Part shown: piece after piece, positions 348 through 48,590 of the stretch | How positions within the stretch are numbered: the stretch's first letter is position 1 | Layout: each line of letters begins with the position of its first letter | Assembly (NCBI GenBank): GCA_020632195.1 | Contig: JACKGA010000001.1 | Span: 45,673 to 109,672 of the forward strand | Length of the DNA: 64,000 nt | Source of the DNA: Candidatus Nomurabacteria bacterium | GTDB lineage: Bacteria > Patescibacteriota > Minisyncoccia > Phycocordibacterales > UBA1006 | Reading direction: 5' to 3' | Translations under genes and position numbers: made by a program | Notes under the pieces: model-generated | Databases searched by the model: none | Told to the model about the DNA's origin: nothing | The model's input: the letters and a program-made list of their open reading frames with translations, nothing else

Positions 348-375
348 TGTCATCCCCGCGGGGGCGTGGATCCAT
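348..375. repeat. Hairpin repeat copy a (TGTC ATCC-stem-loop-stem-GGAT CCA family)
   Basis: tgtcatccccgcgggggcgtggatcca: the conserved TGTCATCC and GGATCCA flanks around a GC stem, lying just upstream of the helicase start. Confidence 0.55.
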
Positions 376-402
376 GGTTCAACTTTCAGTATAAAATCAA
401 AA

Positions 403-822
403 TTAGCCGTCTATTCCTACTGTCACTAGCTCATCATTCTCAAAGTAAATTGTAAGCTGATGTCTGCCCTCGTCTTCCATCATATCGAAGGCTAAGTCCC
501 ACTCGATTGGAGGTTGTTCAAGGTTTAGTATATTTATAGCAACTAAGAGAAATTTTTTACTAAAGTCGTCTATCTTGAAGACCACATTTTCATCCCAATC
601 TTTAATATTTTCTTTAATTAAGTTTGCACTCTTTGCAACCAGATCTTGATAACCTCTCTGTATCTTTATATAGAAGTTTCTCTGTTTGTCCGTGGGTTTT
701 TTCTCAACCGCATCAATAAAATATTCGATATATTTATTCAAAGGTTCAAAAAATACCTCGCCTTCAAAATACTTTATTGCTGAATCCCAGTGTGCTGTCT
801 CTAACATAAGCTCACCAAACAC
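403..822 (-). CDS. hypothetical protein (139 aa)
   Basis: Intact ORF that is co-directional with its neighbours; I recognise no motif. Confidence 0.5.
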   Translation of the reverse strand: MFGELMLETAHWDSAIKYFEGEVFFEPLNKYIEYFIDAVEKKPTDKQRNFYIKIQRGYQDLVAKSANLIKENIKDWDENVVFKIDDFSKKFLLVAINILNLEQPPIEWDLAFDMMEDEGRHQLTIYFENDELVTVGIDG

Positions 823-904
823 ATCGTCTTTCAGGGTTTTCTTTTTGAGCCATCCGAATATAACTTAAATACTAACATAAAAGCGCCTTACGGCGCAGGA
901 GAGG

Positions 905-953
905 TGGATCCAAGATATTTTCTCCGCTTTGCTACGAAAATTCTAGGATGACA
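905..953. repeat. Hairpin repeat copy b (long-loop variant)
   Basis: tggatccaaga-[tattttctccgctttgctacgaaaat]-tctaggatgaca. The flanks TGG ATCC ... GGAT GACA are present and the loop carries the CTCCGCTTTGCTAC motif. The sequence is near-identical to the copy at 12275..12323. Confidence 0.65.
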
Positions 954-979
954 CAGATGAGAGTGTATACGCTTTCTTG

Positions 980-1315
980 CTACTCCATCTCATCCAATTG
1001 TTCCAAAAACAAACGCATTTCGTCGTTCATCAAGTATCCGAAATCAGGATACGTCTCGTCGAGGAAGGCGAGAAATTCTGGTAATGACATACTGTCGAGC
1101 TTTGCATTGAGATCAGCAACCACTGATTCTTCTTGGCTATCCATAAAACGCGCCAAAGCATTCTGGATCACGGTTTCTCCCATCATAGCGATGAGTTCCT
1201 CCTGATCTTCCTCGGGCATGTCTTCAATGTCTAAAACATCTACGAGATCATTTATAACATCAGTAATATTGATTTGTTCATCGAGAGGGTTTATGGGTTC
1301 CATAGGTGTAGTCAT
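980..1315 (-). CDS. hypothetical highly acidic protein (111 aa)
   Basis: Intact ORF very rich in Asp and Glu; no recognisable domain. Confidence 0.5.
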   Translation of the reverse strand: MTTPMEPINPLDEQINITDVINDLVDVLDIEDMPEEDQEELIAMMGETVIQNALARFMDSQEESVVADLNAKLDSMSLPEFLAFLDETYPDFGYLMNDEMRLFLEQLDEME

Positions 1316-1321
1316 TATACT

Positions 1322-1705
1322 CTATTGTCCCTTGCCAAGCATCTGTCCCGTAGCCTGGTCTGCGACGCGTTCGATAAAAGCTGTAATATGCTCTCCGGCA
1401 AAAGGCGTGGCATCGATAGAATTAGCAAGCCGTGCCACCAAATCGCGCAATGTCTGATACGTACCTTGTACCGTTCCCGTCATAAATTCTACAGCATCTC
1501 CTTTGTATTCATTGCCGATCTTTACAGGATCGAGATTCTTGAGGTGACGATACGCAGTATCGGTATACGGGTCCTCCTGCGCAGCAAGTTCAAAAGCGCG
1601 ACGATAGAGTCTTTCCAGAACGAGCTTGGTGGGGTTGGGAGCACTTTGGAGTGTCTGGGTAATCGTTGATGAGTTGACGGTATCCTTCTGAGTATTCATG
1701 GTCAC
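1322..1705 (-). CDS. hypothetical protein (127 aa)
   Basis: Intact ORF, 6 nt upstream of the 980..1315 gene and 32 nt downstream of the 1204-aa gene, consistent with one operon. Confidence 0.5.
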   Translation of the reverse strand: MTMNTQKDTVNSSTITQTLQSAPNPTKLVLERLYRRAFELAAQEDPYTDTAYRHLKNLDPVKIGNEYKGDAVEFMTGTVQGTYQTLRDLVARLANSIDATPFAGEHITAFIERVADQATGQMLGKGQ

Positions 1706-1737
1706 TAGTATATCATGACGATGTACGAAGCTCTAGG

Positions 1738-4700
1738 CTATGATCCGCCAAAAATATCTTTCATGGCTTTCCCGAGATTACGTCCCGCTTGCTGTCCTCC
1801 AGGAATCCTTCGAAAAATATCTTCTGGACCATCTACCATCACGCCTGATTGGTCGGCAACTGGCGTACTTTCACCAGGATTTCCCCCGAAGCTTATTTGG
1901 GTATCTTGAAGGACAGGACCATCTACTCCAATAGTTATGGTTGGTTTAATACTTGCATTCGGATTAGGAATCGTCCTCCCTCCTTTGAAAGTAGTGTTTG
2001 GATTCACATCGGCATGGTTATATGCAGAAGCATCAGGGCTTTTGTAGGTACTATAGCCTTGCCCCGCTTGTGCTACATTCTGGTCACCATAAAATTGCCC
2101 TTGATTATGGAGATATTGTGTCTGATCGAGATGATTGGTTGGCAATGGCCCGCCTGTTTTGATAACCGTTGTGTTGGGAATATTTTGTGGAGTCGCAGCA
2201 TCGAGTTCAGACTGTGGGTAGCGACTCATGTCGCCTTTACTTACGGGGTCTTGGTTAAGCTCGGGGACGCTCTGTGTATGGACACCATCACCCGTACTCC
2301 CTTTAAAATTTGGACCACTTGTATTTTGACCTATCGTCTGTGGCTGATACGTATGCCCCTGCGTAGGTTCTGCGATAGGAATATCGTGATGACTAGATGG
2401 TCCTGGTGTGATATCTACCACTGGTGGATTGGACTGGGGAGGCACTTGTACTTCTGCCACAGGAGGTTGCTGAAATACGGCCTCGTGAGAAACCACAGGA
2501 TCAACATCTACTGGAGTGATAGACTTATGACCAATCACCTCAACTTCAGGGAGCGTTCCGCCATCAATCGTAGCAATAGGAGCGGGACGGTTAAAATCTG
2601 GACGCATGTCGCGCATGTCTGCACGCGAGAGATCAGGTCCTGATGAGGTCAAACTGTGAGCAGTCATACCTCCACCCATAGCCCCCAACATCGTCAGGAT
2701 CAAACGTGCTCGCCAACGACGCACATCTCCACGCTGGATGCGTTCTACTTCTCGCTGGAAGGTAAGGCTATCGATTTCTTTATGAGCGAACTGTTTACTG
2801 AGCTGCTCGATACGACTACGTCCCTCAGCTTTTTGAGCATCCTCTTCAAATTTCATTTTTTTCTGAGTTGCAACGGCAGCTTTGTAATACATATCCTCAT
2901 CAGGATGATAGTCTTTTTCCTTGGTGCGAGCCATATATTCACGATCTTTCAAAGCCCAATCCTGTGCTTTTTGTTTTGCTTTCTGTTGCTGTAAACGAAT
3001 CAATTCCTCGTCATGAAGGTTCATGTTTATTTGGGTGCGTGACTCATTTCCAATGAGATTTTTGATTGATTCATTTTTAGTTACCAAGTTGGCGAAACGA
3101 CTACTTGCGAGACGTCGCGTAATCATGCCGCCAGCAAAGCCACCAAGGTACCCTGGGATATTCAACCCAAACAAAGCTGCGGAAGTCGTATACATCCCCG
3201 CAACCGCAAGCCATGCACCCCCTTGTTTGATCAGACGTGCTTTTTTAGGGTCTTCTTTTTCGAGTTTTGCAAATTTTGCTTGAAGAGTATTCTCGATTTT
3301 GCCATACCAGGTCTCGGCACGCTGTTGACGTAGGGTTTCGCTCCGTACTTCACGCGCAATTCTCTGTTGGTCATAGATAGCGGTAATCCCTACATAACGA
3401 TTTTTGAGTCGTTCGGCTACTTCTTTTTTACGATCTTCGCTCCATCCTTCTTTGTCTTTCAGAAGATGCATGTAGTAATTATTTTTTTCTTGCCCTGCTT
3501 CACGGCGGTATTTTTGATACGCTTCCATGGTTTTGGGAGACATATCTTGCTGTTCGAGCTTGTCGCCTTCCCCACGCCCAAACCAAATACGATTCTTCAA
3601 GCGATGAAAAAAGCCTTGCTGTTGTACTTCTTCTTTGTATTTGGCACGGAAGTCTTCACGTAGTGCTTGCGTACGCTCATGGATATTTTTGTCTTCAAAA
3701 CGCTGTGGCACGGTGAAAGAAATACGTCCTTCTTGAATCAGTCCGCTCAATTCATCATTGATATCAACACGGGTCCGTCTCCCGCCAAAAGAAACCCACA
3801 TGCCATCATCAGACATGGATTCGATTGCGAACTCCTGTCCACGGTAATTCATAACCGGCTTTTCCCCTGCTTTAAATGCATCGCGTACGACAACAGTATC
3901 AGTGGTAGTCAGGTTTTCTGTAACAATCTTTTTGTCTTCAGTAGTTTGAGGCGCTAGTTCTTTTTCTTGCATATCAATTTCTTGTACTTGATTTTCCTCA
4001 AAATGTGGATTCACCGAGCCCACGTGTTCAAGCTTATCTTTCGATATTGCATACGTACGATTACTTCCTGCGGGAGCAACGTTCACAAATCCTTTTTCGA
4101 CATCATCACGATTACCTTCGTAGAGAAGATTCCCCTTTTCGTCTTTAAAAACACGTTGTACGCGTGCAATCTTGTCTGAACCAATAGCATATGTTGGTCC
4201 CGTACCGTCAATAGACTGGACACTCGTATTGCCTTCTTCCATATCATCTCGTGGTACTTCCACCAAGCCGGTATTCTTTTCAAGATGGCGAAAATGCCGA
4301 GGTTCGAGGTTGCTAGAAGGAGAAGGAATGTTTTCTTTTTTATTTTCCACATCTTCTTTGCTCTCGTGTTCTTGTTGGGAGAGATTGCTTCCTATTCCGC
4401 CAAAATCAAGGTCACCTGGTCCAGCCGAGACCCATTCTGGCTGTTCGTAGTCTAGAGGTTGGCTGTCTTCTTGCCCCCCTTCGACAAGACTTTCTTCCTG
4501 AGACAGCGAAGTATTTTCTTTATTTTTCTGTAATTCTTTTTGGATTTTCAACTTGAGCTCCCGCTGGTGCCGTAAGAAATCAGCATCATTATTGATATAG
4601 TTGAGATCTGTTTGAGCAGAATCATACACGGTTTTGGCTGTTGTTTGCTCTTGTGCTTGTGGATGGCTTTCATTCTGATCGGTATTCACACCCAAAGAAG

Positions 4701-5352
4701 CATCATAGAGTGCCCCCATAAGCTTCTGTGCTGCTTGGTCATCAGCTTTTTCTTTTGATTTTTGATATGTTTCATATGCTGACGATGGTACATACTCGGC
4801 GCTTTGCTTTTCAGCATTTTTTTGAGACCATTGCAGACCCTTTTTTGGAAGTGTTCCTGTATAAGATTTATATCCTTTTGGAACTTTGGGCTGCGTATCA
4901 TTCTCTTGTGTCATCTTTTCATTAAATCTCTTCTGAGGAAAATCAGCTGCGAGATTTTCTCCTTGTTGACGAGCAACATAGCCGAGAATAGAGTTCAGAG
5001 AGACTTCGCCCGCGCGAGTCGTTTTGATCCCCGCTTTGTCTTTGAGAAATTGAGTAAGGATTGGTCGATCTTCTTTTGAGAGAATATTTTTAGACTCCAC
5101 AAACTCACGCCACTGACCAAACGTGGGCTTTTGGTGGTATCGCCCATATTGTTCCATGAACTCTTGAAATGCTTTATCAATTTTCTTGAAAGCTTCAGGC
5201 GGGGTTTTGCGATTAGTATCTTTTAATTCTAAATTTGTATTGGTAGATTGCTCTCTATGAGAAGGTTCTGGGTCATCTCCTAAAATAGTAGAAAAAACTT
5301 TTTTAATTTCTTCCTGATTTTTTGAATTGTTTATAGCGTCGCCAAGATTCAT
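1738..5352 (-). CDS. large hypothetical membrane protein (1204 aa, two predicted transmembrane segments, Q/N/T/P-rich, coiled-coil)
   Basis: Uninterrupted 3.6-kb ORF. Hydrophobic segments GGAWLAVAGMYTTSAALFGLNIPGYLGGFAGGMIT and WRARLILTMLGAMGGGMTAHSL. The C-terminal region is Gly/Pro/Asn/Gln-rich and of low complexity. No catalytic motif recognised. Confidence 0.7.
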   Translation of the reverse strand: MNLGDAINNSKNQEEIKKVFSTILGDDPEPSHREQSTNTNLELKDTNRKTPPEAFKKIDKAFQEFMEQYGRYHQKPTFGQWREFVESKNILSKEDRPILTQFLKDKAGIKTTRAGEVSLNSILGYVARQQGENLAADFPQKRFNEKMTQENDTQPKVPKGYKSYTGTLPKKGLQWSQKNAEKQSAEYVPSSAYETYQKSKEKADDQAAQKLMGALYDASLGVNTDQNESHPQAQEQTTAKTVYDSAQTDLNYINNDADFLRHQRELKLKIQKELQKNKENTSLSQEESLVEGGQEDSQPLDYEQPEWVSAGPGDLDFGGIGSNLSQQEHESKEDVENKKENIPSPSSNLEPRHFRHLEKNTGLVEVPRDDMEEGNTSVQSIDGTGPTYAIGSDKIARVQRVFKDEKGNLLYEGNRDDVEKGFVNVAPAGSNRTYAISKDKLEHVGSVNPHFEENQVQEIDMQEKELAPQTTEDKKIVTENLTTTDTVVVRDAFKAGEKPVMNYRGQEFAIESMSDDGMWVSFGGRRTRVDINDELSGLIQEGRISFTVPQRFEDKNIHERTQALREDFRAKYKEEVQQQGFFHRLKNRIWFGRGEGDKLEQQDMSPKTMEAYQKYRREAGQEKNNYYMHLLKDKEGWSEDRKKEVAERLKNRYVGITAIYDQQRIAREVRSETLRQQRAETWYGKIENTLQAKFAKLEKEDPKKARLIKQGGAWLAVAGMYTTSAALFGLNIPGYLGGFAGGMITRRLASSRFANLVTKNESIKNLIGNESRTQINMNLHDEELIRLQQQKAKQKAQDWALKDREYMARTKEKDYHPDEDMYYKAAVATQKKMKFEEDAQKAEGRSRIEQLSKQFAHKEIDSLTFQREVERIQRGDVRRWRARLILTMLGAMGGGMTAHSLTSSGPDLSRADMRDMRPDFNRPAPIATIDGGTLPEVEVIGHKSITPVDVDPVVSHEAVFQQPPVAEVQVPPQSNPPVVDITPGPSSHHDIPIAEPTQGHTYQPQTIGQNTSGPNFKGSTGDGVHTQSVPELNQDPVSKGDMSRYPQSELDAATPQNIPNTTVIKTGGPLPTNHLDQTQYLHNQGQFYGDQNVAQAGQGYSTYKSPDASAYNHADVNPNTTFKGGRTIPNPNASIKPTITIGVDGPVLQDTQISFGGNPGESTPVADQSGVMVDGPEDIFRRIPGGQQAGRNLGKAMKDIFGGS

Positions 5353-8347: not shown

Positions 8348-8764
8348 ATGAAAAAAGAAAACGAATTCTCAATCCCCAAAAGATCAGTATGGGCATTGAT
8401 ATGTACTCTTGTACTGGGAGTATTTATATACTTTCAAGCAAAGTATTACATAATTCCTGGGTTTCAGGAAATTTTTAATGAAAAAGACCCCACACTAGAA
8501 GCAGTCATGCGACTGATGTGGGTACCCATACTGGCGTACTGTATGATCTCTGCAGGTCTAGTATCCATCTTTAGTATATTTACGAAACTAAAAAAATATA
8601 AAGAGGAGGGGCTTATTGCTGGGCTTATTGCTGGGCTTATTGCTGGGCTTATTGGCGGGCTTACTTGGGGGCTTATTGGCGGGCTTACTTGGGGGCTTAT
8701 TGGCGGGCTTGTTATTGGGCTTGTTATTGGGCTTATTGCTGGGCTTATTGCTGAAAAAAATTAA
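8348..8764 (+). CDS. small membrane protein with a C-terminal (G-L-x-x)12 glycine-zipper repeat
   Basis: N-terminal transmembrane segments, then GLIAGLIAGLIAGLIGGLTWGLIGGLTWGLIGGLVIGLVIGLIAGLIA, encoded by twelve tandem 12-nt units. Confidence 0.55.
   Translation: MKKENEFSIPKRSVWALICTLVLGVFIYFQAKYYIIPGFQEIFNEKDPTLEAVMRLMWVPILAYCMISAGLVSIFSIFTKLKKYKEEGLIAGLIAGLIAGLIGGLTWGLIGGLTWGLIGGLVIGLVIGLIAGLIAEKN
8609..8752 (+). repeat. 12 x 12-nt in-frame tandem repeat (gggcttattgct and variants)
   Basis: Direct reading of the sequence: the units are gggcttattgct x3, gggcttattggc, gggcttacttgg, gggcttattggc, gggcttacttgg, gggcttattggc, gggcttgttatt x2 and gggcttattgct x2. Confidence 0.9.
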
Positions 8765-8854
8765 TGAGGGAAAAAAATATTGATGTGCCTTACGCTAATG
8801 TGTAGGGCACTTTTTCTTGCGCCAATCCTTCTTTCCATGTACACTCGCCTCCAT

Positions 8855-12274: not shown

Positions 12275-12323
12275 TGGATCCCAGATATTTTCTCCACGTT
12301 GCTTTGAAAATTCTGGGATGACA
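12275..12323. repeat. Hairpin repeat copy c (long-loop variant)
   Basis: tggatcccaga-[tattttctccacgttgctttgaaaat]-tctgggatgaca, a near-duplicate of copy b at 905..953. Confidence 0.65.
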
Positions 12324-30863: not shown

Positions 30864-30864
30864 T

Positions 30865-34017: not shown

Positions 34018-34044
34018 TGGATCCCTGTTTTCGCAGGGATGACA
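34018..34044. repeat. Hairpin repeat copy e
   Basis: tggatccctg-ttttcg-cagggatgaca, directly downstream of the polA stop. Confidence 0.65.
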
Positions 34045-34074
34045 CAGATGAGAGTTTCGTGTATACGACTTACT

Positions 34075-38195: not shown

Positions 38196-38310
38196 AAAAA
38201 AATTATATCATAGAAAAACAAAAAACCCTCCCGCCTGCCTTTGCCGACAAATAGGGGGTTTTACGTTTTTTTGGCATGGAGCCATAATAGCACTAATCCC
38301 CTCTCTGCTG

Positions 38311-38337
38311 TGTCATCCCCGCGTAGGCGGGGACCCA
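38311..38337. repeat. Hairpin repeat copy f
   Basis: tgtcatccccgc-gtag-gcggggaccca, in the divergent intergenic region. Confidence 0.6.
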
Positions 38338-38408
38338 TCTCAATGTTTCCACTATCTCCTTTTTTGTCAGTCTGAATTTATTTTAGGATATATGATAAAA
38401 TTAAACAC

Positions 38409-39113: not shown

Positions 39114-39124
39114 CATAAAAAACA

Positions 39125-39150
39125 AAAAACCCTCGCGGGTTTTTTGTTTT
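39125..39150. terminator. bidirectional Rho-independent terminator
   Basis: aaaaaaccctcgc-gggttttttg. Confidence 0.7.
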
Positions 39151-39178
39151 TCTAATACATGAGAATAAGTACGGATAC

Positions 39179-39829
39179 TTATTTCTTCTTAATATCCATA
39201 TCAAGAAGCGTAAACAACCACATCCCAACAATAGAACCAACGATAGGGCCAAGAATATACATTGCATTGAAGTGTCCTACGGCCAAACCAACAGCTGGGT
39301 TAAGAACTCCCGCAGAGCCAATCATCAGCGCTACCAAAAGCCCCATAAAAAGTGATGCTCCGATGATGAATCCAGAAGCACCTTTTTCATTGCGTCCATA
39401 CACCACTGATGCAATCCCAAAGGTAAAGATTACCATACCGATTGCTTCTGCAAGTCCAACACGAATAGTGTTTTCTACGGTTGGAGCAACTTGTGCAAAA
39501 AATGCACCAAGTCCTGGCTCTGGAGCGAACCCAGCAGCAATAGCAAGAGCAACACCAGCACCAGCAAATTGTGCAGCTAGGTAGACAAGAGCATCTTTCC
39601 AATCAATTTTATTGATAAGAAATGCACCAATAGTAACCCCTGGGTTAATATGTGTCCCTGAAATATGACCAATCGTATAGACGAAAAGAGTAAGCGTAAG
39701 CCCCGCAAACAAGGCTACAAGAAGTCCTGGGATACCTGACATCAGTGACATCAAAACTACTAAAGAAAGGATGAGTGTCCCAAACATTTCGGCACCAAAC
39801 TTTTGGATAAATGGAAGAGCTTTTTTCAT
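39179..39829 (-). CDS. aquaporin/MIP family channel
   Basis: Six transmembrane segments, with a first half-helix motif SGTHINPGVT (an NPG variant of NPA) and a second NPAVGLAVG. Confidence 0.9.
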   Translation of the reverse strand: MKKALPFIQKFGAEMFGTLILSLVVLMSLMSGIPGLLVALFAGLTLTLFVYTIGHISGTHINPGVTIGAFLINKIDWKDALVYLAAQFAGAGVALAIAAGFAPEPGLGAFFAQVAPTVENTIRVGLAEAIGMVIFTFGIASVVYGRNEKGASGFIIGASLFMGLLVALMIGSAGVLNPAVGLAVGHFNAMYILGPIVGSIVGMWLFTLLDMDIKKK

Positions 39830-39993
39830 AAATAAAAATTTTGAGGTTCAAAGATTTGTAGCCATCATAGAAAGGACAACCCACAAACCAAAATTCCCTG
39901 CATTAAAATACTAACAATTAATAAATAGTAATGGACGGGACTATTATACCGCACTACAACAAAACGCAAAATGTATTCTTGGATGCTCCACTT

Positions 39994-40971
39994 CTAGATG
40001 AGCCCCAAAATCTTTGCCATAAATACGAGATAGATAAGAAGCATCATAACCCCCTCCCACAGCCTCACCTTGTTATCGGCGGTTACTGCAAAAGCGGTAA
40101 ATGTAGCAAGTGCCAAAAATGGCAGCCCGATCGCAAACGTTGTAGGATCGATATCGAGATTGCCAAAAAATGCCGGGATACTTGTCACGAGGGCAATATT
40201 GAAAATATTTGACCCAAAGACATTACCAATAGCCATCCCATGATTGCCAAGTTTAATAGCCGAAAGTGACGTAAGGATTTCGGGAAGCGAAGTACCAATT
40301 GCCACAACCGAGATAGTCAACACGGAAGAAGAAATACCAAAGAGATCCGAAAGTGTGAGCAAGCTATCGATAAAATATTTTGCAGATACAGCAATCAGTC
40401 CCATGGAAAGAATAATAAGCCCGCTATATTTCACAATCTTTAGAATTTTTATTCTAGAACCTTCGCCATCGTATTCTTCTTTTATTGCTTCCATCTCATC
40501 GGCGTCTTTTTTTTCTGGTTTTGAGGTGATGTTGTACACCATGAAAATGACAAAAAAGAGGAAGAGAAAAATGCCTTCTTGCCATGTCACTACTTTATCC
40601 ATCGCAAAAAAAAGCAAAAGGCCCGCCGAGGTAACAAAAAATGGCAAATCAATATCAATCAGCGAAGTGCTGACCTTGAGGGTTCGTGCTGCGAGTGCCC
40701 CAATCCCAAGGATCAAAAGCGCATTGGCAATATTTGAACCAATCACATTATCAATAACAAAGGTTGTTTGCCCTGTCCCAATCACTGCGTACAGCGAAGA
40801 AACAAGCTCGGGAAGTGAGGTCCCTACCGCCACGATCGTAGCACCAATAATAAAGGAACTCATCCCAAAGAGGAGTCCAAGTTTTTCACTATATTCAGTA
40901 AAATGATCGGCACTTTTTACCAGAACATAAAGTGAGCCAATAAAGGCAATAATCCATACAGCTATTTGCAT
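39994..40971 (-). CDS. CaCA family sodium/calcium exchanger (YrbG-like)
   Basis: Two alpha-repeats, each containing GTSLPEL/GTSLPEI, within a multi-pass membrane protein. Confidence 0.9.
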   Translation of the reverse strand: MQIAVWIIAFIGSLYVLVKSADHFTEYSEKLGLLFGMSSFIIGATIVAVGTSLPELVSSLYAVIGTGQTTFVIDNVIGSNIANALLILGIGALAARTLKVSTSLIDIDLPFFVTSAGLLLFFAMDKVVTWQEGIFLFLFFVIFMVYNITSKPEKKDADEMEAIKEEYDGEGSRIKILKIVKYSGLIILSMGLIAVSAKYFIDSLLTLSDLFGISSSVLTISVVAIGTSLPEILTSLSAIKLGNHGMAIGNVFGSNIFNIALVTSIPAFFGNLDIDPTTFAIGLPFLALATFTAFAVTADNKVRLWEGVMMLLIYLVFMAKILGLI

Positions 40972-41065
40972 ATAGCGATCAGTGTAGTGGAATCAAGAGA
41001 GAAGAGCAAGATACTTGACTCTCTGGTGAAAAATAGTATTTTGAAATAAACAAATTTAAAAAATC

Positions 41066-41992
41066 ATGGAAAAATTAAACATATCGACACTCGATTTCAA
41101 TCACTGGGCGAAGGGAGATCATCAAGAAAAACAGTTATTTCTGAGTTATCTTAGAAGATCATTGCAAGAGCCGGGATTCTTCTTTCTAGACAATCACGGC
41201 ATGGACCAAAAAATCCTAGACGTGAGTGAATCAAAAGCACGGAGTTTTTTCACTCAGATAAGAGAAGAGGAGCGCCTAGGGTATACATATGCTCATCTTC
41301 ATCATCAGATTGGGTATACTCCCAGCGGAGTAGAAAAAGGTGAATTTGCCAAAATTGCTGATACCAAAAAGTTTTGGCAGACGAACCCTAATTATAGTAT
41401 ACCAATAGTGAAAGAAATACCTGGATTTAACCAATTAACCCTTCAGTCTTATTATGAATTTGAAAAAATTTATACTGAACTGATGAAAGCAGTCGCAATG
41501 ACTCTGGAATTGCCAGCAACGTATTTTTCAGACCATATCGGCAATAGTGTGATGAGGGATATTTTTTACCCAGCACACCAGAATCCCGTGGTAGATGACG
41601 GAATGGTTGCCGAGGGAGGGAATGCTTTGGGCATGTGTGCATCTATGCACACGGATATAAATTTCCTGACATTGCTCGAAGCCAAAGAAAAAGGGCTACA
41701 ACTATGGCATGAGGGGAGATGGATGGATATCACTATCACAAAACCAGGATTGATCATTGTAAATTGTGGTGACATGTTACAGCATGTAACTGCGGGGTAC
41801 TATGTGTCTGGGATGCATCGCGTGGTGTGTCAGCCCAACACCCCACGTTACGCGCGACCCTTTTTCGGTCATTTGAAATCCGGGACAAGTATTGTGCCGC
41901 TCTCTCAATTCAGAGATTTTGATGCAAAACGGTTTCGATTTAAAACAACCGATGAATATTTGAATTTCAGACTCAATCAAATTGGCGTCTAA
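41066..41992 (+). CDS. 2-oxoglutarate/Fe(II)-dependent oxygenase superfamily protein
   Basis: H-x-D facial triad in MHTDINFLTLL, distal His in GMHRVV, and the RxS-like segment RPFFGHLKSGTS. Confidence 0.75.
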   Translation: MEKLNISTLDFNHWAKGDHQEKQLFLSYLRRSLQEPGFFFLDNHGMDQKILDVSESKARSFFTQIREEERLGYTYAHLHHQIGYTPSGVEKGEFAKIADTKKFWQTNPNYSIPIVKEIPGFNQLTLQSYYEFEKIYTELMKAVAMTLELPATYFSDHIGNSVMRDIFYPAHQNPVVDDGMVAEGGNALGMCASMHTDINFLTLLEAKEKGLQLWHEGRWMDITITKPGLIIVNCGDMLQHVTAGYYVSGMHRVVCQPNTPRYARPFFGHLKSGTSIVPLSQFRDFDAKRFRFKTTDEYLNFRLNQIGV

Positions 41993-42043
41993 AAGATGAT
42001 AGAAAGAAAATAGAAATAAAAGCCTACACCATTGTGTAGGCTT

Positions 42044-42493
42044 TTACTCTTCAAAAATAATTTCTCGGTCATCTCCATGCTGAAGAATACGGATCTTTAA
42101 CCAATCTTTTTGGTCACGATCTGCTACCTGTTCGGGCCATTCAATCATGATAAGGTTTCGGGGGTCAGAAAAAATCTCATCGAACTTCAGGATTGCAAGC
42201 TCTTGCCATGAGGTCAGCCGGTATGCATCGATATGGATCAGTTGCTTCCAAGGAAAACGAGAGTTGGTAATTTGATAAAACTTCGCAAGAACAAATGTCG
42301 GGCTTATCACTGTTTCAGAAATATCGAGATGGTGTGCCAGCGTCTTGGTCAAAGCAGTTTTGCCAGCCCCTAAATTTCCTGACAGCGCACATACCGTCGC
42401 ACGATGGTGTTGCATAGAAGCTACAAGTTTTTCTAAAATCTCTCCAGCTATTCGATTGGTGTCATCGAGGGAATGTGACGTGTACGTTTGCAT
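42044..42493 (-). CDS. tsaE: tRNA threonylcarbamoyladenosine biosynthesis protein TsaE
   Basis: Walker A GNLGAGKTALTK, SPTFVL and HIDAYRL motifs of the YjeE family. Confidence 0.85.
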   Translation of the reverse strand: MQTYTSHSLDDTNRIAGEILEKLVASMQHHRATVCALSGNLGAGKTALTKTLAHHLDISETVISPTFVLAKFYQITNSRFPWKQLIHIDAYRLTSWQELAILKFDEIFSDPRNLIMIEWPEQVADRDQKDWLKIRILQHGDDREIIFEE

Positions 42494-42511
42494 AGGGATA
42501 ATTTTACCATA

Positions 42512-42541
42512 ACAAAACCCCGCTTTCGCGAGGTTTTGTTA
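42512..42541 (-). terminator. Rho-independent terminator downstream of the large surface-protein gene
   Basis: acaaaaccccgc-tttc-gcgaggttttgt. Confidence 0.6.
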
Positions 42542-42555
42542 TAGTTTTTTAGAAC

Positions 42556-45336
42556 TTAGTTCTGTGATCCATCAAACGGAGCTGGGCGATACACTGTATA
42601 GTCTGGTGTATTGACTGCCTGTGGGGCAGCAGCATGTGCTTGTGGAAGGTTAGCCGGTGCCTGAGCTACAGGAGCTGGGGCATACATTGGCTGTACTGGG
42701 TGCATAGGCTGCATAGGCGCTGCAGGCATCATGTATTGTGGTTGGTGATACATAGGAGCCTGTGCGTATGCTGGCGCATATGCGTATCCATATGATGATC
42801 CTTCGGCACGCTTACCCTGTACATAGAAGTAACGAGCAGCGAGGAGAAGGAGAGCGAGGAGAAGAAGCGTAAGCAACCATCCCCATACACTCGTAAAGAA
42901 TCCTGAGAGAAATGCTGATGCAGATCCGAATCCGATAGCAGCATCATATACTTGGTCGAAGTCGAATTCGATAGCGGTGTCCTGAATACCATTACCGACA
43001 CCGTCACCACCGAGGTTTGCTTCTACGACGACTGCCTGTCCAATATTCGCACCTGGGCGTACACGAACAGTAATCATCATATCTCCCTTTTCTTCTGATT
43101 CAATATCACCAAGATCAATGATCACTGAATGTTCTGTTTTACCTGTATACGTACCACGAGTTGTTGAAAGAAATTCAAGTTCTTTTGCAAGTTTTACATC
43201 AAGGATTGCATCTTCGAAGTCTTGCTTACAGAGGTTTTCCCATTCAACTTCATATACCAATGTCTGTCCGCGGGTTACTCCTTCAACATTGTTGGTAAGG
43301 TTCAAAGCAATACATCCGAGACCAGAACCTGCTTCAAGAGTATTTGAGGTAATCGTTGTAGCAGTATTGGTGTTTACACGAGTAACGGTAGAGGTATTTG
43401 ATGAAACCGTAGAGATCACACGTCCAGGAGTACGGAATGATTCAAAGTCTCCGTATACTGGGATGCCGTTACAGTATCCGACAGCTCGTACATAGTAGGT
43501 CACTCCTGGAGTCAATCCAGAAATTGATTCACGCATGATTCCACTATTGTTTCCACGTGTGACAATACCTGTCGAAACATTCATATTTGAAGTACTGGTT
43601 CCTATCAAGAATTGAGTAGAGAAAGCGCTACAACCATTTGCATTGTATCCAGCGTTCAAAACAGCTGAAGTACCAGTCACTGATGATTCAGGAAGGGTTA
43701 CCACGATAGGATTTACTACTGAGTCAACACCATTGTTTCCTGGCTGGTCGATAGTCACAACTTGGTAGTCAGTATCAGTAACAAATTTTTCTACATCACC
43801 ACATTCCAATGTATCGTCATTATTTTCATCTTCGTACTCAACACAGATACGGAAGTAGTATGTTTCATTCGTATCAAGTCCAGTAACCGTTTTGCGGTAA
43901 TCTTCGTCACCATCAAGGTCGCTGTCAACTCTTACTTTACGGATGTCTTGCCCATCGTTGTCAACATCGCTATAGGTGTCGAAATCATTATCAACATCTT
44001 CAATGTCATTCTTGTTCTGTCCGTATACAAAGAATACAACACCGTTATCAAAGTCATTCATGTCTACTGAACCATTAAGTTTTGCAGAGTCTTCATCAAC
44101 ATCCTCGGCATCATCAGTATCAGCTTTTGGTTCATCATTATTATTGTGAGAACCAGAACTTACATCTACGGATACGTTATCACTTGCTGAAAGACCATAG
44201 TTGTTGGTACAAGTAATTTCAAAATTAGTATCTTCATTAAGTGAATAGGTGTCACTATTGCTTGATGTATAAATACCTGTTTTTCCATCGAAGTAACTCA
44301 AGTTTGGAGTTGCATCATAGATACAGTGATCAGCATTAGTAATTGTCCATGTCACTACTACATTGTCTCCTTCCTGAATAGTACTATCGTTCACAGTAAT
44401 ATCTACCGTTGGCGCAGTGCCCTGATTTCCTCCATTGCTTGTTACGGTAAGCTGGTGAGTATCCTGTACTGGCGTACCATCAAGTCCGATACAATTTGCA
44501 GTAAAGCTATAGGTACCAGCAGAAAGAACATATGAAGATGAGCCAGTAGTTCCAGAGTTGTTGTTCCATTGAGAAACAGTAGGAGAAGAAGTGAAAGTAC
44601 AAGTCGAAACATCATTAGAATTCCAAGAAACATTTGCAGAAGTACCTGCAGGCACTGTAGATGTCCCAGAGACATTTACTGATGGGTTGTAGGTAGGAGC
44701 AGGCGTGTCATTACCGATCTTGAAAATAGCAGTAATGTATACGTAATCACCAATACCGATAGGCTGATTGATATTTTGTCCTGAGCTACCAAACATAGCA
44801 GTGCTGGTAGAGAATGTCCCACTATCTACAGCATTCCCATTATCATAATATACTTCATGATATCGAATATAACTCACAGTCTGGTCTATTCCAGAAATAT
44901 CAAAACCAACTCCGTCATATTCTGTAGAACCTCCATTGTCAGAAAGAGTAACTCCAAAGTCTACTCCTGACTGTGCTGTAGAAGAATTAGGGTTAAAACC
45001 GGTCACCTTAAAGTTTGGACTGGTCATTACTTGGTTACCAATATTCTTCAGTTTGATACGTAGGTTGATAGTATCTCCGGCATTGGCAGTAATATCATTT
45101 TTATTCCAACACAATTCGTATTGGGAATTTGATACAACACCGTATCCACTCGTGTGGTTACCGATTTGGGCCAGAGCACATTCATTAGATGAGTTACCGG
45201 CATCTTGGTTATAACCCAAAGAGCCATTGGCAAACTGTCCCGCTGCAAATGCAGTCGAAACAGAAACCATAGCAATCGCAACGACAGCAAAGGCTGCAAC
45301 AGCGATATATGAGATTGTTTTCATAACGTTTTTCAT
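42556..45336 (-). CDS. large cell-surface protein (926 aa) with signal peptide, repeated beta-rich domains, C-terminal transmembrane anchor and Tyr/Pro/Ala-rich cytoplasmic tail
   Basis: N-terminal MKNVMKTISYIAVAAFAVVAIAMVSVSTAFA and multiple T/S/N-rich Ig-like segments. The C-terminal transmembrane segment FFTSVWGWLLTLLLLALLLLAA is followed by YGYAYAPAYAQAPMYHQPQYMMPAAPMQPMHPVQPMYAPAP. Confidence 0.7.
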   Translation of the reverse strand: MKNVMKTISYIAVAAFAVVAIAMVSVSTAFAAGQFANGSLGYNQDAGNSSNECALAQIGNHTSGYGVVSNSQYELCWNKNDITANAGDTINLRIKLKNIGNQVMTSPNFKVTGFNPNSSTAQSGVDFGVTLSDNGGSTEYDGVGFDISGIDQTVSYIRYHEVYYDNGNAVDSGTFSTSTAMFGSSGQNINQPIGIGDYVYITAIFKIGNDTPAPTYNPSVNVSGTSTVPAGTSANVSWNSNDVSTCTFTSSPTVSQWNNNSGTTGSSSYVLSAGTYSFTANCIGLDGTPVQDTHQLTVTSNGGNQGTAPTVDITVNDSTIQEGDNVVVTWTITNADHCIYDATPNLSYFDGKTGIYTSSNSDTYSLNEDTNFEITCTNNYGLSASDNVSVDVSSGSHNNNDEPKADTDDAEDVDEDSAKLNGSVDMNDFDNGVVFFVYGQNKNDIEDVDNDFDTYSDVDNDGQDIRKVRVDSDLDGDEDYRKTVTGLDTNETYYFRICVEYEDENNDDTLECGDVEKFVTDTDYQVVTIDQPGNNGVDSVVNPIVVTLPESSVTGTSAVLNAGYNANGCSAFSTQFLIGTSTSNMNVSTGIVTRGNNSGIMRESISGLTPGVTYYVRAVGYCNGIPVYGDFESFRTPGRVISTVSSNTSTVTRVNTNTATTITSNTLEAGSGLGCIALNLTNNVEGVTRGQTLVYEVEWENLCKQDFEDAILDVKLAKELEFLSTTRGTYTGKTEHSVIIDLGDIESEEKGDMMITVRVRPGANIGQAVVVEANLGGDGVGNGIQDTAIEFDFDQVYDAAIGFGSASAFLSGFFTSVWGWLLTLLLLALLLLAARYFYVQGKRAEGSSYGYAYAPAYAQAPMYHQPQYMMPAAPMQPMHPVQPMYAPAPVAQAPANLPQAHAAAPQAVNTPDYTVYRPAPFDGSQN

Positions 45337-45837
45337 AATAATGTATAAAAATAATAATTTGGAATAATGATGTTAATTAAACGACTTATTTCTTAATTAA
45401 CACAGTAATTATAGCACAATGGTATAAAAATGTCAAGCATTTAGCAAGACCCTCACCGGCCGAGTTGGCCAGCGTTATACGATGCTCTGATTCCTGTATC
45501 AACTAAACGTCTCCCTCACAACATAGTGGAGAGTGGTGTATATACGTCAATTATGCGCTTTTCTTTCGTAAAGATATGAGAGAATAGCGTAGTATCGCTT
45601 ATTTATAACGAATACAACCACATTTTCTTACAGAACGCAAGTGTTTTTCTTTATTTGTTAAAAAATTTTCCTCGCATCCGCGAGAACATTCCCCTTTCGT
45701 TCGAGATTCGATCAGAAAAATGATCAAATGCCGAATAAAGAGTGGGATCACCAACAGGGATCCCAACTTTAAAACTTTTTACATAACCCAGGGTATCTAC
45801 TCTCATATGATATGATTTCGATACCCTATAAATAACC

Positions 45838-46698
45838 CTACTCCCCAAAGCTTCCGGAAACCCCGCCAGCGCTAGAGCCGGCGCCCTGGCTTCCGGAAAC
45901 CCCACCATTTTCTCCTGAACCATATGATCCAGGTACTCCACCACCATTTGTTGGCGTGTAAATAGTAGGTTGAGGGTTCGAACCACCTTGCGGTACGTAT
46001 ACCGTGTTGGTGGTTTTTCCCCAATCTTTGGAGATTAGTCCTGAGACTACTCCTCCAACAATTGGGCCGACCCAAGATCCAGCGGCAGCCCATTTCTGGG
46101 CTTTGTTGGCGCCTTGTGGTTGTGTTTGTACATAAATCACTTGCGGCTGAGTCGACTGGGTTTCAGGTGTTTTTTTGGCCTGAAACAGATCTATCTTTGG
46201 AAGCGGTTTGATATCGCTTCCGCAGCCACAATCCGCTGGGGCTGGAGCTGGGGTTTCAGTAAATCTTTTTCCCAAATTGATACAGAAATTTGTACCAATC
46301 TTGAAAGAAACCTTGCTCCAGCTTTCATCTTGCGAAAGCCGGTATTCAAAAATTCTTATACCGGCATTTAGATAGCCGGCAGAAAAAATTATTCCGTCCT
46401 TAACCCCATGGTTAAGGATTTTTTCCCCAGCCTGTACGCTTCTGATGCGTACATTTTGAGAAATATTTGGCGACCCTACTGCAGCCACCAATCTACTCCA
46501 TTCCGCCTGTCCAATTTCTTGGATCAGTGCAGTCTGGGTAGACTGCGGCATGCCACCTACCCATGCTTTAAAAGCGCGAATAGTGTCACCATTGTTTGCA
46601 TTCAGCAAATCCCAGCCCCATGGGTTAAATTCCCCAGAAGCTTTAGAATTTAAGAAAAAAAACAATGTACATACGATTAAAAAATTTATTTTTTTCAT
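45838..46698 (-). CDS. secreted Gly-rich hypothetical protein, paralog A
   Basis: Signal peptide. It shares FKAW, AGYLNAGIR, KIGTNFCINLGKR and a C-terminal GGGVPGS...G-rich tail with the 48685..49752 gene. Confidence 0.6.
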   Translation of the reverse strand: MKKINFLIVCTLFFFLNSKASGEFNPWGWDLLNANNGDTIRAFKAWVGGMPQSTQTALIQEIGQAEWSRLVAAVGSPNISQNVRIRSVQAGEKILNHGVKDGIIFSAGYLNAGIRIFEYRLSQDESWSKVSFKIGTNFCINLGKRFTETPAPAPADCGCGSDIKPLPKIDLFQAKKTPETQSTQPQVIYVQTQPQGANKAQKWAAAGSWVGPIVGGVVSGLISKDWGKTTNTVYVPQGGSNPQPTIYTPTNGGGVPGSYGSGENGGVSGSQGAGSSAGGVSGSFGE

Positions 46699-46953
46699 GA
46701 TTTTATGTTTTTGTGCCCATTTCTGAGCGATTTTTAGAATAAAAACATGACCCCTCGCGGATCATGTCCGGCGAATTGGGGTAAAAAACTACTTTTTTAA
46801 CCTTGATTCTCCACTATTATAACATACTCTTTGACAAAAAGCAAGTCTTATTGTATAAATATCTCTAGAAAACCCAAAAATCAACCTGGTTTCTTGTCGT
46901 CTTGAGCTTTACCATCGCTCGTTCTGGTGTCTCATACACTGATAATACGAGCT

Positions 46954-46978
46954 TTGTCCTCCTGAACGTGTTTCAGAA
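46954..46978. repeat. Hairpin repeat copy k1 (degenerate) / first unit of a 2-copy direct repeat
   Basis: ttgtcctcctgaa-cgtgt-ttcagaat. Its 25-nt core is identical to 47006..47030. Confidence 0.55.
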
Positions 46979-47005
46979 TTTAAGTATCCTCTCATCATCT
47001 ACTCT

Positions 47006-47034
47006 TTGTCCTCCTGAACGTGTTTCAGGATCCA
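47006..47034. repeat. Hairpin repeat copy k2
   Basis: ttgtcctcctgaa-cgtgt-ttcaggatcca. Confidence 0.6.
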
Positions 47035-47124
47035 TGGTACTACAGATATTCTCGTGTCTATTGGGAATTCAGCTCATGGTATGAAATATCTTTTCTATCT
47101 CTTTGTTGAACTCTCTTGGATCTC

Positions 47125-47151
47125 TGGATCCCGATTGTCATCGGGATGACA
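47125..47151. repeat. Hairpin repeat copy g
   Basis: tggatcccga-ttgtca-tcgggatgaca. Confidence 0.65.
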
Positions 47152-47205
47152 AGCATTTGTTTGTTTTTAATTGGGTGTTTATAATCCTTCTATTATATTT
47201 ATGTT

Positions 47206-47614
47206 TGTCATCCTGACGCATGTCAGGATCCATACAACTCCAAAGATAATTTGATATACTAGGAATATTACCCATTATTGAAGACTGTGTAATATGAATC
47301 ATAGAGAATACTATGTATACATTATGTGCAACAAAGCTCGTGGCACCTTGTATATAGGCGTTACAAACAATATAGAAGTGCGCGTGCAACAACATCAACA
47401 AGGAAAAGGCAGTGTCTTTACTGCAAAATACCAACTCTATAGACTTGTATATTATGAATCCTTTCAATACATTGATCAGGCAATTATGAGAGAGAAGCAG
47501 CTTAAAAATTGGAGAAGACAATGGAAGATTAATCTTATCGAAGAATATAATCCAATATGGCGAGATCTCAGCTATGAATGGTTTTATGGATCCTGAAATA
47601 AATTCAGGATGACA
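47206..47614 (+). mobile_element. candidate compact mobile cassette: GIY-YIG nuclease gene flanked by 27-bp inverted hairpin repeats
   Basis: The left end is tgtcatcctgacgcatgtcaggatcca (47206..47232). The right end is tggatcctgaaataaattcaggatgaca (47587..47614). Its reverse complement matches the left end except in the loop. The ORF's stop codon lies inside the right repeat. Confidence 0.45.
47294..47596 (+). CDS. GIY-YIG nuclease superfamily protein (100 aa; COG2827/UPF0213-like)
   Basis: MNHREYYVYIMCNKARGTLYIGVTNNIEVRVQQHQQGKG...: GIY-YIG core (YVYIM..GTLYIGVTNN), conserved Arg, His-Gln-x-Gly and a distal Glu/Asn. The terminal codons gga tcc tga sit inside the hairpin repeat. Confidence 0.8.
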   Translation: MNHREYYVYIMCNKARGTLYIGVTNNIEVRVQQHQQGKGSVFTAKYQLYRLVYYESFQYIDQAIMREKQLKNWRRQWKINLIEEYNPIWRDLSYEWFYGS

Positions 47615-47654
47615 AATGAGAAGAATAATGTGTATTCCAAAATATACAGTAAGA

Positions 47655-47765
47655 CTGGAGAAACAACCTCGATGCAAAGCAGTCGAGGTATATTATTGAG
47701 TTCTCTACTTGCTCACTTCTTGTTTTATTCCGAGGCAGAGACTCGAGGAATATCATCGAGAAGAT
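47655..47765. repeat. ~105-nt structured repeat, copy X2
   Basis: Aligns base-for-base with 33885..33995, with compensatory stem changes (cctcga...tcgagg versus ccccga...tcgggg). Confidence 0.7.
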
Positions 47766-47796
47766 TAAACATAAGCTAAAAGCATAAAGTAAAAAA

Positions 47797-47830
47797 TAAC
47801 CAACAAAAAACACCCAGCAACATGTGGGTG
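47797..47830 (-). terminator. Rho-independent terminator downstream of the Tyr/Asn-rich secreted protein gene
   Basis: Minus strand: acaccca-catgttgc-tgggtgt followed by tttttgtt. Confidence 0.55.
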
Positions 47831-47856
47831 TATTTGGCAGGTAAGAAATGACCAAA

Positions 47857-48432
47857 CTATTTTAGCGAAATCCACTCGAGCGGACACCACTGCCTATTCT
47901 GCTGATACCAGCGATCATAGGTGGGACGCGTATTGAATGCAAAACTCGCCTGTAAAAAAAATTTTGCCCCGTTTACCACAATGGTGGCCTTAGGGTTAGA
48001 TCCTCCCATATAGTAGCCCTGATTACCATAGTAGTAATGATACGGGCTGTAATATCGGTAGCCATACTGTTGGTTGTAGTATGGATACACAATATACGGT
48101 GCAACAGGCACTACATTCGTATTACTATTGTTATTGTTGTTGTAATAGTAATAGTTATTTGTAGTTGTGCTTGGAGTCACTGCTTGATTCCCAGGATTAT
48201 AATAAACATCATCATAATGTTTATTATCTCCATGTGAATCGTCAGAAGACTCTTCATCTTCTCGCCCCGGGCAATCCCAACAATCCTCTACAGAATAATC
48301 ATCCACAGTGGGAGGATTAGTCGTAGGAATAGATATCGTAGATGCTACTGGAATTCCATTAGCATTATACGAAACCTGTGCTTGGGCAATTCCTGCGCAC
48401 AGTAAAAATAATACAAAAAATATATATCTCAT
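47857..48432 (-). CDS. secreted Tyr/Asn-rich low-complexity protein (191 aa)
   Basis: Signal peptide MRYIFFVLFLLCAGIAQAQ, then YYYYNNNNNSN and YYSPYHYYYGNQGYY tracts. Confidence 0.5.
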   Translation of the reverse strand: MRYIFFVLFLLCAGIAQAQVSYNANGIPVASTISIPTTNPPTVDDYSVEDCWDCPGREDEESSDDSHGDNKHYDDVYYNPGNQAVTPSTTTNNYYYYNNNNNSNTNVVPVAPYIVYPYYNQQYGYRYYSPYHYYYGNQGYYMGGSNPKATIVVNGAKFFLQASFAFNTRPTYDRWYQQNRQWCPLEWISLK

Positions 48433-48563
48433 GTCTCATTGGTTTTTAGTTGTTAAAATAAAAAATATCATGAATATTAAACCATACTTTGATTAAAAAA
48501 GCAAGTTTTTAGAAAGGTCCGACCATCGATATCCCTAGAACTAGGTTTCGTATGGGGCGATTC

Positions 48564-48590
48564 TGGATCCCCGTTTTCACGGGGATGACA
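48564..48590. repeat. Hairpin repeat copy j
   Basis: tggatccccg-ttttca-cggggatgaca. Confidence 0.65.

Follow-up and report, generated by a model that had tools for sequence, protein, structure and literature searches.

The DNA analyzed here is a stretch of 64,000 nucleotides from a Candidatus Nomurabacteria genome (contig JACKGA010000001.1, forward-strand positions 45,673 to 109,672), in the following called the window, with a G + C content of 41%. On the evidence of its sequence, the window very probably carries an Ssn/SRM system, in which the GIY-YIG protein encoded at 47294-47596 would be a member of the Ssn family and a set of dispersed TGTC-tagged hairpins would be its cognate motifs. 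By its architecture the motif is a predicted member of the family, and by its sequence a variant outside the published consensus. The Ssn/SRM system as such is already known, having been published in 2025, and was re-derived here independently from raw sequence, whereas its occurrence in a genome of the candidate phyla radiation (CPR), to which the Nomurabacteria belong, is new.

The repeats in question have been described under several names. Repetitive extragenic palindromes (REPs) with a CGTC tag were defined by Di Nocera, De Gregorio and Rocco (2013, BMC Genomics; PMC3733652) by an unpaired CGTC tag (variants TGTC and CCTC), a stem of 8-9 bp in which the first two pairs are A-T and T-A, a loop of 4-5 nt and a CCA tail. 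Most of them are arranged in inverted dimers; they show no association with a tyrosine transposase and include dRS3 of Neisseria as well as RPE-4 and RPE-6 of Rickettsia. That survey found the family in five phyla, the CPR not among them, and concluded that there is no dedicated enzyme (PMC3733652).

The same repeats, called NTS in Neisseria and SRM in general, have since been associated by Chenal et al. (2025, Nat Commun; PMC11893778) with ssnA, a small gene that encodes a single GIY-YIG domain; SRM, CGTC-tagged REPs and the Neisseria NTS/dRS3 are one and the same thing. The Ssn family corresponds to the CDD entry cd10448 (GIY-YIG_unchar_3), and the published proportion of ssn genes with an SRM on either side is 42%. 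In purified form, the SsnA proteins of four species bind the hairpin only when it is present as single-stranded DNA (ssDNA), and of the two strands only the tag-sense one; they cut it a few nucleotides upstream of the tag and are inactive on RNA. For cutting, the three bases before the palindrome matter most, and for binding the C after it. Since the activity of the Neisseria enzyme was abolished when the palindrome was changed with its structure kept, recognition depends on sequence as well as on structure. In N. meningitidis, SsnA lowers transformation by NTS-bearing DNA (PMC11893778). Patescibacteria are not mentioned in that paper (PMC11893778), and a search of the literature before 2025 for a link between GIY-YIG proteins and REPs found none.

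The gene assigned to the Ssn family is the following:

47294-47596, plus strand: ssn, a 100-aa single-domain GIY-YIG endonuclease homologous to SsnA (Pfam PF01541, E 1.4e-17; BLASTP).

The PF01541 domain spans residues 6-80 and no second domain was detected, which agrees with the size and domain composition of the Ssn family (a single GIY-YIG domain, less than 150 aa, no extra DNA-binding domain). As a stand-in for N. meningitidis CAX49033.1, the protein was compared with the 94-aa SsnA ortholog of N. gonorrhoeae (L002:1219-1500), which was obtained by a tblastn search of PLSDB, where two gonococcal chromosomes are filed as plasmids. Both proteins are 48% identical over 90 aa (residues 5-91 of 94, E 2e-27) and thus lie within the similarity limits used by Chenal et al. 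(BLASTP E < 1e-10, at least 75% coverage). Residues Y9, Y20 and E67 of the window protein align with the catalytic Y6, Y17 and E64 of SsnA, and this conservation, together with the overall identity, argues for the assignment to Ssn/SRM. In the public record the protein is named 'GIY-YIG nuclease family protein [Candidatus Nomurabacteria bacterium]'. A search of PDB returned no Ssn entry and only weak relatives of the UPF0213 type (1zg2, E 7e-7), NCBIfam holds no specific family for the protein, and no close relatives were found in viral contigs. The gonococcal locus used for comparison lies in NZ_CP119140.1, a 2.17-Mb chromosome filed as 'plasmid' in PLSDB. It carries about 16 distinct NTS copies within 2.7 kb, and the ssnA ortholog, which is unannotated there, is flanked by canonical NTS repeats.

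The hairpin family had been proposed in a first-pass annotation made from the sequence alone, and it could be confirmed as real. The anchor pattern TGTCMTCC-N(6-36)-GGATCCA, in which only the flanks and the four outermost stem bases are specified, has nine exact matches in the window (348+, 905-, 12275-, 34018-, 47007+, 47125-, 47206+, 47587- and 48564-), while 0.01 matches are expected from 100 dinucleotide-preserving shuffles. A tenth complete hairpin at 38311+ carries one substitution beside the tail (GGGGAC-CCA), and word searches with TGGATCC and GGATGACA account for the remaining sites. In total, the census comprises ten complete hairpins and two truncated ones (33804 and 46954), and the earlier count of at least 13 copies, for which 12 sites had been listed, has to be lowered accordingly. 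The copies are:

348-374, plus strand: hairpin TGTC-ATCCCCGC-gggg-GCGTGGAT-CCA with one internal mismatch (pattern, fold, covariance model 39.4 bits).
905-953, minus strand: long-stem hairpin TGTC-ATCCTAGAATTTTC...GAAAATATCTTGGAT-CCA, 27 nt past the stop codon of the open reading frame (ORF) 980-1315(-) (pattern; fold -7.7 kcal/mol, z -2.9).
12275-12323, minus strand: long-stem hairpin between the Peptidase_S51 and ClpP genes identified by Pfam (pattern; fold -9.7 kcal/mol, z -3.3).
33804-33815, plus strand: truncated copy TGTCATCCCAGA, consisting only of the tag and the 5' half-stem of the long variant (word match to GGATGACA; no fold).
34018-34044, minus strand: hairpin TGTC-ATCCCTG-cgaaaa-CAGGGAT-CCA, 30 nt past the stop codon of polA, identified by Pfam (pattern, fold, model 42.6 bits).
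38311-38337, plus strand: hairpin TGTC-ATCCCCGC-gtag-GCGGGGAC-CCA whose outermost pair is broken, located between divergent genes (fold, model 39.6 bits).
46954-46981, plus strand: truncated duplicate of the 47007 copy without GGATCCA (sequence, weak fold, model 19.4 bits).
47007-47034, plus strand: hairpin TGTC-CTCCTGAA-cgtgt-TTCAGGAT-CCA with the tag variant TGTC-C, forming a tags-outward pair with the 47125 copy, 90 nt apart (pattern, fold, model 42.2 bits).
47125-47151, minus strand: hairpin TGTC-ATCCCGAT-gaca-ATCGGGAT-CCA (pattern, fold, model 38.5 bits).
47206-47232, plus strand: terminal hairpin on the upstream side of the ssn cassette, TGTC-ATCCTGAC-gcat-GTCAGGAT-CCA, tag outward, 62 nt 5' of the ssn start codon (z -4.7, model 44.4 bits).
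47587-47614, minus strand: terminal hairpin on the downstream side of the ssn cassette, TGTC-ATCCTGAA-tttat-TTCAGGAT-CCA, tag outward (pattern, fold, model 42.8 bits).
48564-48590, minus strand: hairpin TGTC-ATCCCCGT-gaaa-ACGGGGAT-CCA, 95 nt past the stop codon of ORF 48685-49752(-) (pattern, fold z -3.9, model 39.9 bits).

Both truncated sites had been counted as copies before; they are present, but the one near 33803, previously called degenerate, retains only a 5' half that does not fold, and the one at 46954 is an incomplete duplicate. The ssn gene itself stands within the inverted pair 47206(+)/47587(-), both tags pointing outward. Since ssn ends inside the 47587 hairpin, which takes in its stop codon and the three codons before it, this copy is not entirely intergenic, contrary to the description of all copies as such. 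The 700 bp around the GIY-YIG gene hold five sites (46954-47614) and not six as reported, the 48564 copy following about 970 bp further downstream. Of the other copies, those at 905, 34018 and 48564 follow stop codons, those at 38311 and 47007-47206 occupy intergenic regions between divergent genes, and those at 348 and 12275 are placed between genes in convergent or tandem arrangement; they show no consistent orientation relative to the neighboring genes. Among the genes near the copies are polA, clpP, Peptidase_S51, a gene for an ART-PolyVal domain protein and many ORFs without a Pfam match.

When folded as ssDNA, all ten complete copies form a hairpin reaching from directly after TGTC to directly before CCA, with z-scores of -2.5 to -4.7 in eight of them. 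Eight copies have stems of 7-8 bp starting with AT and loops of 4-6 nt. The deviating features are the long stems of the 905 and 12275 copies and a broken first pair in those at 38311 and 47007. The two long copies are 85% identical to each other (repeat family D10), and what had been read as loops of 26 nt folds into extended stems of 14 bp. With filters switched off, a covariance model based on the short copies recovered the eight short copies at 38-44 bits. Its only other match in the window was the truncated copy at 46952, with 19 bits, and the family is thus sharply bounded, with no hidden members in the window; looser scans for tag and stem likewise gave no extra family members. At gathering thresholds, Rfam reports two tRNAs only in the whole window, and in E-value mode the regions 33750-34080 and 46900-47860 gave chance-level matches only.

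The inner stem pairs are complementary in every anchor match although the pattern fixes only the outer 4 bp, and as the inner stem is left unconstrained, this pairing is an independent result. In the alignment of the copies, 96% of the stem cells pair. Three inner pairs are changed on both sides in 12 cells, compared with 4.4 +/- 1.5 in shuffled alignments, none of which (0/500) reaches 12; none of the slid alignment registers comes near the observed number. The covariation of the inner stem pairs is therefore genuine, and the earlier observation of co-varying stems with pairing kept is borne out. It also bears on the reading of the copies as double-stranded palindromic operators of a transcription factor. 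The copies are palindromic and intergenic, several of them in promoter regions (38311, 47007-47206), as such a reading would have it, but compensatory changes that keep the pairing while the inner sequence shifts are the signature of a folded hairpin and not of a fixed duplex operator. Given in addition that the asymmetric tag and tail and the location at 3' gene ends do not fit, operators are highly improbable.

A role at the level of the transcript, as intrinsic terminators or mRNA-stabilizing 3' hairpins, is very unlikely. Four copies (905, 34018, 47587, 48564) do lie at most 100 nt past a stop codon, and any stable hairpin in a 3' untranslated region can affect RNA decay. Yet the stems are not followed by T-tracts on either strand, and in the region 46700-48700 none of the five copies was classed as terminator-like, in contrast to genuine hairpins of that type nearby; on these two grounds the terminator reading was rejected, in agreement with the first-pass annotation. 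Moreover, both orientations occur relative to the upstream gene, some copies lie in divergent promoter regions, the reading offers no explanation for the unpaired tag and tail and their conservation, and SsnA is inactive on RNA.

The TGTC tag and the CCA tail are present in all ten complete copies, the tail and the GTC of the tag being invariant, and across the 11 aligned copies the GTC before the stem and the C after it never change. The bases critical for cutting and binding in the Neisseria mutagenesis are thus invariant in the window, which argues for the identification as Ssn/SRM, as does the match of the unpaired TGTC tag, the AT-starting stem and the CCA tail to the defining features of the CGTC-tagged REPs. 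The outer four stem pairs ATCC/GGAT are essentially invariant as well, while the inner pairs fall into five stem classes within one window. The stem sequence had been described as free; this was overstated, both in view of the invariant outer pairs and because the Neisseria enzyme depends on the sequence of the palindrome. A semi-conserved, pyrimidine-rich stretch (consensus approximately CTCTCATCTG) was observed 10-12 nt 5' of the tag at 905, 34018, 47007, 47587, 38311, 12275 and 33804, where the cut of the nuclease would be expected. At 905 and 34018 the upstream similarity runs over about 25 nt (gtatacac...actctcatctg).

Compared with the published Ssn/SRM system, the window shares an about 100-aa, single-domain GIY-YIG protein with Y/Y/E kept and oriented hairpins made up of a YGTC tag, a stem of 8 bp that begins with AT, a loop of 4-5 nt and a C-rich tail. 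Judged by architecture, motifs stand on both sides of the gene, and copies cluster around genes in intergenic DNA. The differences, apart from the CPR host, lie mainly in the sequence and layout of the motifs. The stems in the window are of the ATCC type with the inner parts CTGAA, CCCG or CCTG, in contrast to ATTCCCGC in Neisseria; the 5' flank contains the semi-conserved stretch described above, whereas the Neisseria flank has been described as variable; and two copies have the extended 14-bp stem. The tags point outward in the window and inward at the gonococcal locus. Relative to the CGTC-tagged REPs, the CGTC/TGTC tag, the A-T and T-A first pairs, the CCA tail, the predominance of inverted dimers and the missing tyrosine transposase agree, whereas the dedicated partner predicted for the window is, as in the 2025 paper, a GIY-YIG gene and the 905 and 12275 copies lie outside the stated ranges of stem and loop length.

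For comparison, 80 loci (L007-L086) were collected in one scan of species-representative genomes, encoding proteins that are 48-65% identical to the window Ssn. Their hosts belong to Bacteroidota, Alpha- and Gammaproteobacteria, Acidobacteriota, Calditrichota, Fibrobacteria, CPR lineages (Saccharimonadales, Buchananbacteria, Roizmanbacteria, Peregrinibacteria and Levyibacteriota) and others. A tag-anchored hairpin finder yielded 304 matches in these loci and 60 in shuffled copies. A hairpin is present at most 500 bp from ssn in 63 of the 80 loci, on both sides in 46, and the density of tagged hairpins amounts to 4.8 per kb within 200 bp of the gene compared with 0.12 per kb elsewhere. This concentration beside relatives of ssn is further evidence that the window contains Ssn/SRM.

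The layout is also regular: the nearest upstream hairpin is on the plus strand in 43 of 51 loci, the nearest downstream hairpin on the minus strand in 49 of 56, and the full tags-outward arrangement around ssn occurs in 38/80. Adjacent tags-outward pairs comprise 24 tight 'empty' dimers (gap of at most 20 nt) and 37 brackets of 150-2000 bp, of which 36 enclose ssn; the one bracket without ssn (1/37) apparently holds its passenger by coincidence.

The stems of the relatives vary widely (ATCCTGAA, ATGCTGAA, ACCCTGAA, ATTCCCGC, ATGCCGAA and others). The three commonest, ATCCTGAA, ATGCTGAA and ACCCTGAA (loop cttgt), are identical across phyla and lie outside the published SRM string. Some close Ssn homologs (L009, L056) have beside them stems that equal the NTS core of Neisseria, ATTCCCGC-gcag-GCGGGAAT, which links the variant of the window continuously to the characterized motif.

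As a control, 80 Parcubacteria-like metagenome contigs (515 kb) were picked only through the similarity of their PolA (C-terminus), the best of which are 52-59% identical to that of the window. They contain neither an ssn gene nor such a hairpin, compared with one ssn and ten hairpins in the 64-kb window, and this co-occurrence likewise supports the assignment.

The first-pass annotation had suggested a structure-recognizing enzyme in analogy to REPs and their RAYT transposases. A hairpin-reading enzyme and the REP analogy are apt; the partner is very probably a GIY-YIG homolog of SsnA and not a RAYT. In REP/REPIN-RAYT systems, too, the enzyme gene is present once and stands between oriented hairpins of the kind dispersed through the genome, often as inverted dimers, and the enzyme acts on hairpins in ssDNA. 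Mobilization of the window repeats by a RAYT, an IS200/IS605-type tyrosine transposase, would account for short oriented extragenic palindromes in inverted pairs, which resemble the REP/REPIN organization. The tag, however, is YGTC (TGTC in the window, with a CCA tail) and not the GTAG of RAYT-associated REPs, CGTC-type REPs have been reported without an association with tyrosine transposases (PMC3733652), and the bracketed gene encodes a hydrolytic GIY-YIG nuclease instead of an HUH/Y1 transposase. In the window, the ORFs adjoining the hairpins have no transposase domain. The RAYT reading was rejected on the tag and on the enzyme and is scarcely credible; the likeness is one of organizational logic only. 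Mobility, which the analogy implies, is hypothetical both for the window repeats and in the literature.

Hints of mobility, but no proof, come from the limits of similarity between genomes. In a second Nomurabacteria-like genome (L003), the Ssn is 79% identical to that of the window, and nucleotide similarity is confined to 47218-47616, from hairpin to hairpin, while the neighboring genes differ; a Peptidase_S51 homolog common to both genomes is only 47% identical. This cassette behavior adds to the evidence for Ssn/SRM. A hairpin identical to the 47587 copy is found in the same genome at 20093. In pairwise alignments among the 80 loci, the similarity often stops at the outer hairpin edge (median right end -1 nt; 49 of 129 within -30 to +10 nt), whereas pairs from Sphingomonadales and Flavobacterium show synteny more than 1 kb beyond the hairpins. 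A public contig (L001; Logan, SRR12358676) is 100% identical to window positions 38310-47608 and starts and ends exactly at the hairpins 38311 and 47587; such a break is expected since multi-copy repeats break assemblies.

These data can also be read as those of a selfish cassette, an interpretation that is compatible with the Ssn identity and rivals it on function. Hairpin-ssn-hairpin would then be an autonomous mobile unit without benefit for the host, solo and paired hairpins would be non-autonomous derivatives as in RAYT/REPIN systems, and nicks set by Ssn at the hairpins would trigger copying to new sites by recombination-dependent repair. The position of ssn within an inverted pair in the 38 loci, the 'empty' tight dimers of the same polarity and the alignments stopping at the outer hairpin edge (49/129) fit this idea. 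So does the restriction of the similarity between the window and L003 to the cassette, with its higher identity of Ssn (79%) than of Peptidase_S51 (47%), and so does the identity of Ssn across phyla (59-65%), which is as high as that of PolA among related Parcubacteria (52-59%). The truncated copies (33804, 46954 and a half-SRM in L003) resemble decay products of insertions.

On the other hand, a GIY-YIG nuclease makes a simple nick, and to our knowledge neither a covalent intermediate nor strand transfer is known for these enzymes. Neither a target-site duplication nor a pair of empty and filled sites was found, the contigs at hand for comparison being only distant: with a PolA identity of 52-59% at best, the control contigs are unusable for a comparison of orthologous intergenic sites. 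The synteny beyond the hairpins in Sphingomonadales and Flavobacterium rather suggests stable vertical inheritance. A selfish cassette is thus regarded as possible, though unlikely. In the strongest form of this reading, a GIY-YIG single-strand nickase would drive the active horizontal movement of hairpin-ssn-hairpin as a transposon-like or homing cassette, with the scattered hairpins, the inverted dimers and perhaps passengers (ORF 403-822, the 115-nt repeat D2; see below) as its non-autonomous derivatives; this proposal is considered doubtful.

Several points weigh against the identification of the window as Ssn/SRM. The published string HGTCWYN(0-2)YYVSBRHN(0-5)WNVSBRGN(0-2)RNCYNB matches only two of the ten copies (38311 and 48564) and neither of the two flanking ssn, so that SRMs on both sides of the gene within 500 bp are present by architecture (47206, 47587) but not by the literal string. 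The hairpins nearest to the gonococcal gene point their tags inward, opposite to the layout in the window. The inner stem sequence varies from copy to copy, whereas a changed palindrome abolished the activity of the Neisseria enzyme; the window enzyme may read the outer ATCC/GGAT only, paralogs encoded outside the window may target some of the copies, or relics may make up many of them. A role in transformation has been described in a single species, N. meningitidis (PMC11893778). Finally, the ssn gene of L003 contains a premature stop codon (TGG TAG) by which the last 11 codons are lost (L003 9840-10330), and ssn may therefore be dispensable or decaying. In L003, the loop of the upstream motif is interrupted by an insertion of 53 nt, and a half-motif (TGTCATCCCCGCG) stands before this motif; stop codon, half-motif and loop insertion look like signs of decay or of a nested insertion.

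If the window does hold an Ssn/SRM system, the motif would fold into a hairpin wherever DNA becomes single-stranded, as in imported transforming DNA, on the lagging-strand template or in repair intermediates. By analogy to the four purified homologs, Ssn would bind the stem and the following C and nick the TGTC-sense strand a few nucleotides 5' of the tag, with the complementary strand, double-stranded DNA and RNA as non-substrates. The other copies would be solo or paired derivatives of the hairpin-ssn-hairpin unit and of empty dimers, scattered in intergenic DNA. Their spread would most likely proceed via Ssn-dependent nicking followed by recombination or repair, with hairpin-ssn-hairpin moving as a block. 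Going by N. meningitidis, the likely effect would be a fragmentation of motif-bearing ssDNA and thereby a modulation of recombination or transformation around the flagged loci, which is speculative for the present host. In our estimation, the handling of imported ssDNA could plausibly be relevant in CPR bacteria with their small genomes.

Besides the new host lineage, two results extend the published picture. The SRM string misses the ATCC/CTGAA class that dominates around the closest relatives of the window Ssn: eight of the ten window copies and 136 of 152 gene-proximal tagged hairpins in the 80 loci escape it, with 16 of the 152 matched, so that the number of SRM-associated ssn genes has probably been underestimated in published counts. 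The second is the regular layout, with outward tags, the gene in an inverted dimer and empty dimers nearby, together with the cassette-limited similarity between genomes, which bears on the mobility of the repeats and on how a simple nuclease could spread them. Should the cassette indeed be mobile, the CTGAA-class motifs would imply that the system is considerably more widespread, the CPR included, than now counted. Each natural pair of Ssn and motif is a candidate reagent for site-specific cutting of ssDNA.

A further ORF in the window is placed in a layout like that of ssn. The 139-aa ORF 403-822(-) lies inside the tags-outward pair 348(+)/905(-), downstream of small ORFs and a 1204-aa ORF that are likewise without matches; it has no match in Pfam or NCBIfam. 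A passenger other than ssn would be unusual, with 36 of 37 related brackets holding ssn, and the arrangement may be a coincidence.

A second repeat, D2, has a length of about 115 nt and occurs at 33883-33995 and 47662-47775 (plus strand, 78-84% identical), with a partial third copy at 57386-57427 (minus strand). It contains two hairpins with compensatory differences (CCCCGA/TCGGGG and CCTCGA/TCGAGG; CTCGG/CCGAG and CTCGA/TCGAG), of which the first was called terminator-like in copy 2. Copy 1 is located between the half-motif 33804 and the hairpin 34018, and copy 2 begins 48 nt past the hairpin that ends the ssn cassette. D2 has no match in Rfam and is absent from all fetched loci and from the viral contigs.

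No Pfam domain was detected at E <= 0.001 in the large ORFs 1738-5352(-), 42556-45336(-) and 36596-38011(-), which encode 1204, 926 and 471 aa. Within ORF 8348-8764, a tandem repeat of 12 nt (GGGCTTATTGCT and variants, about 15 units) extends over 8585-8774 and encodes a repeat of the Gly-Leu-Ile-Ala type.

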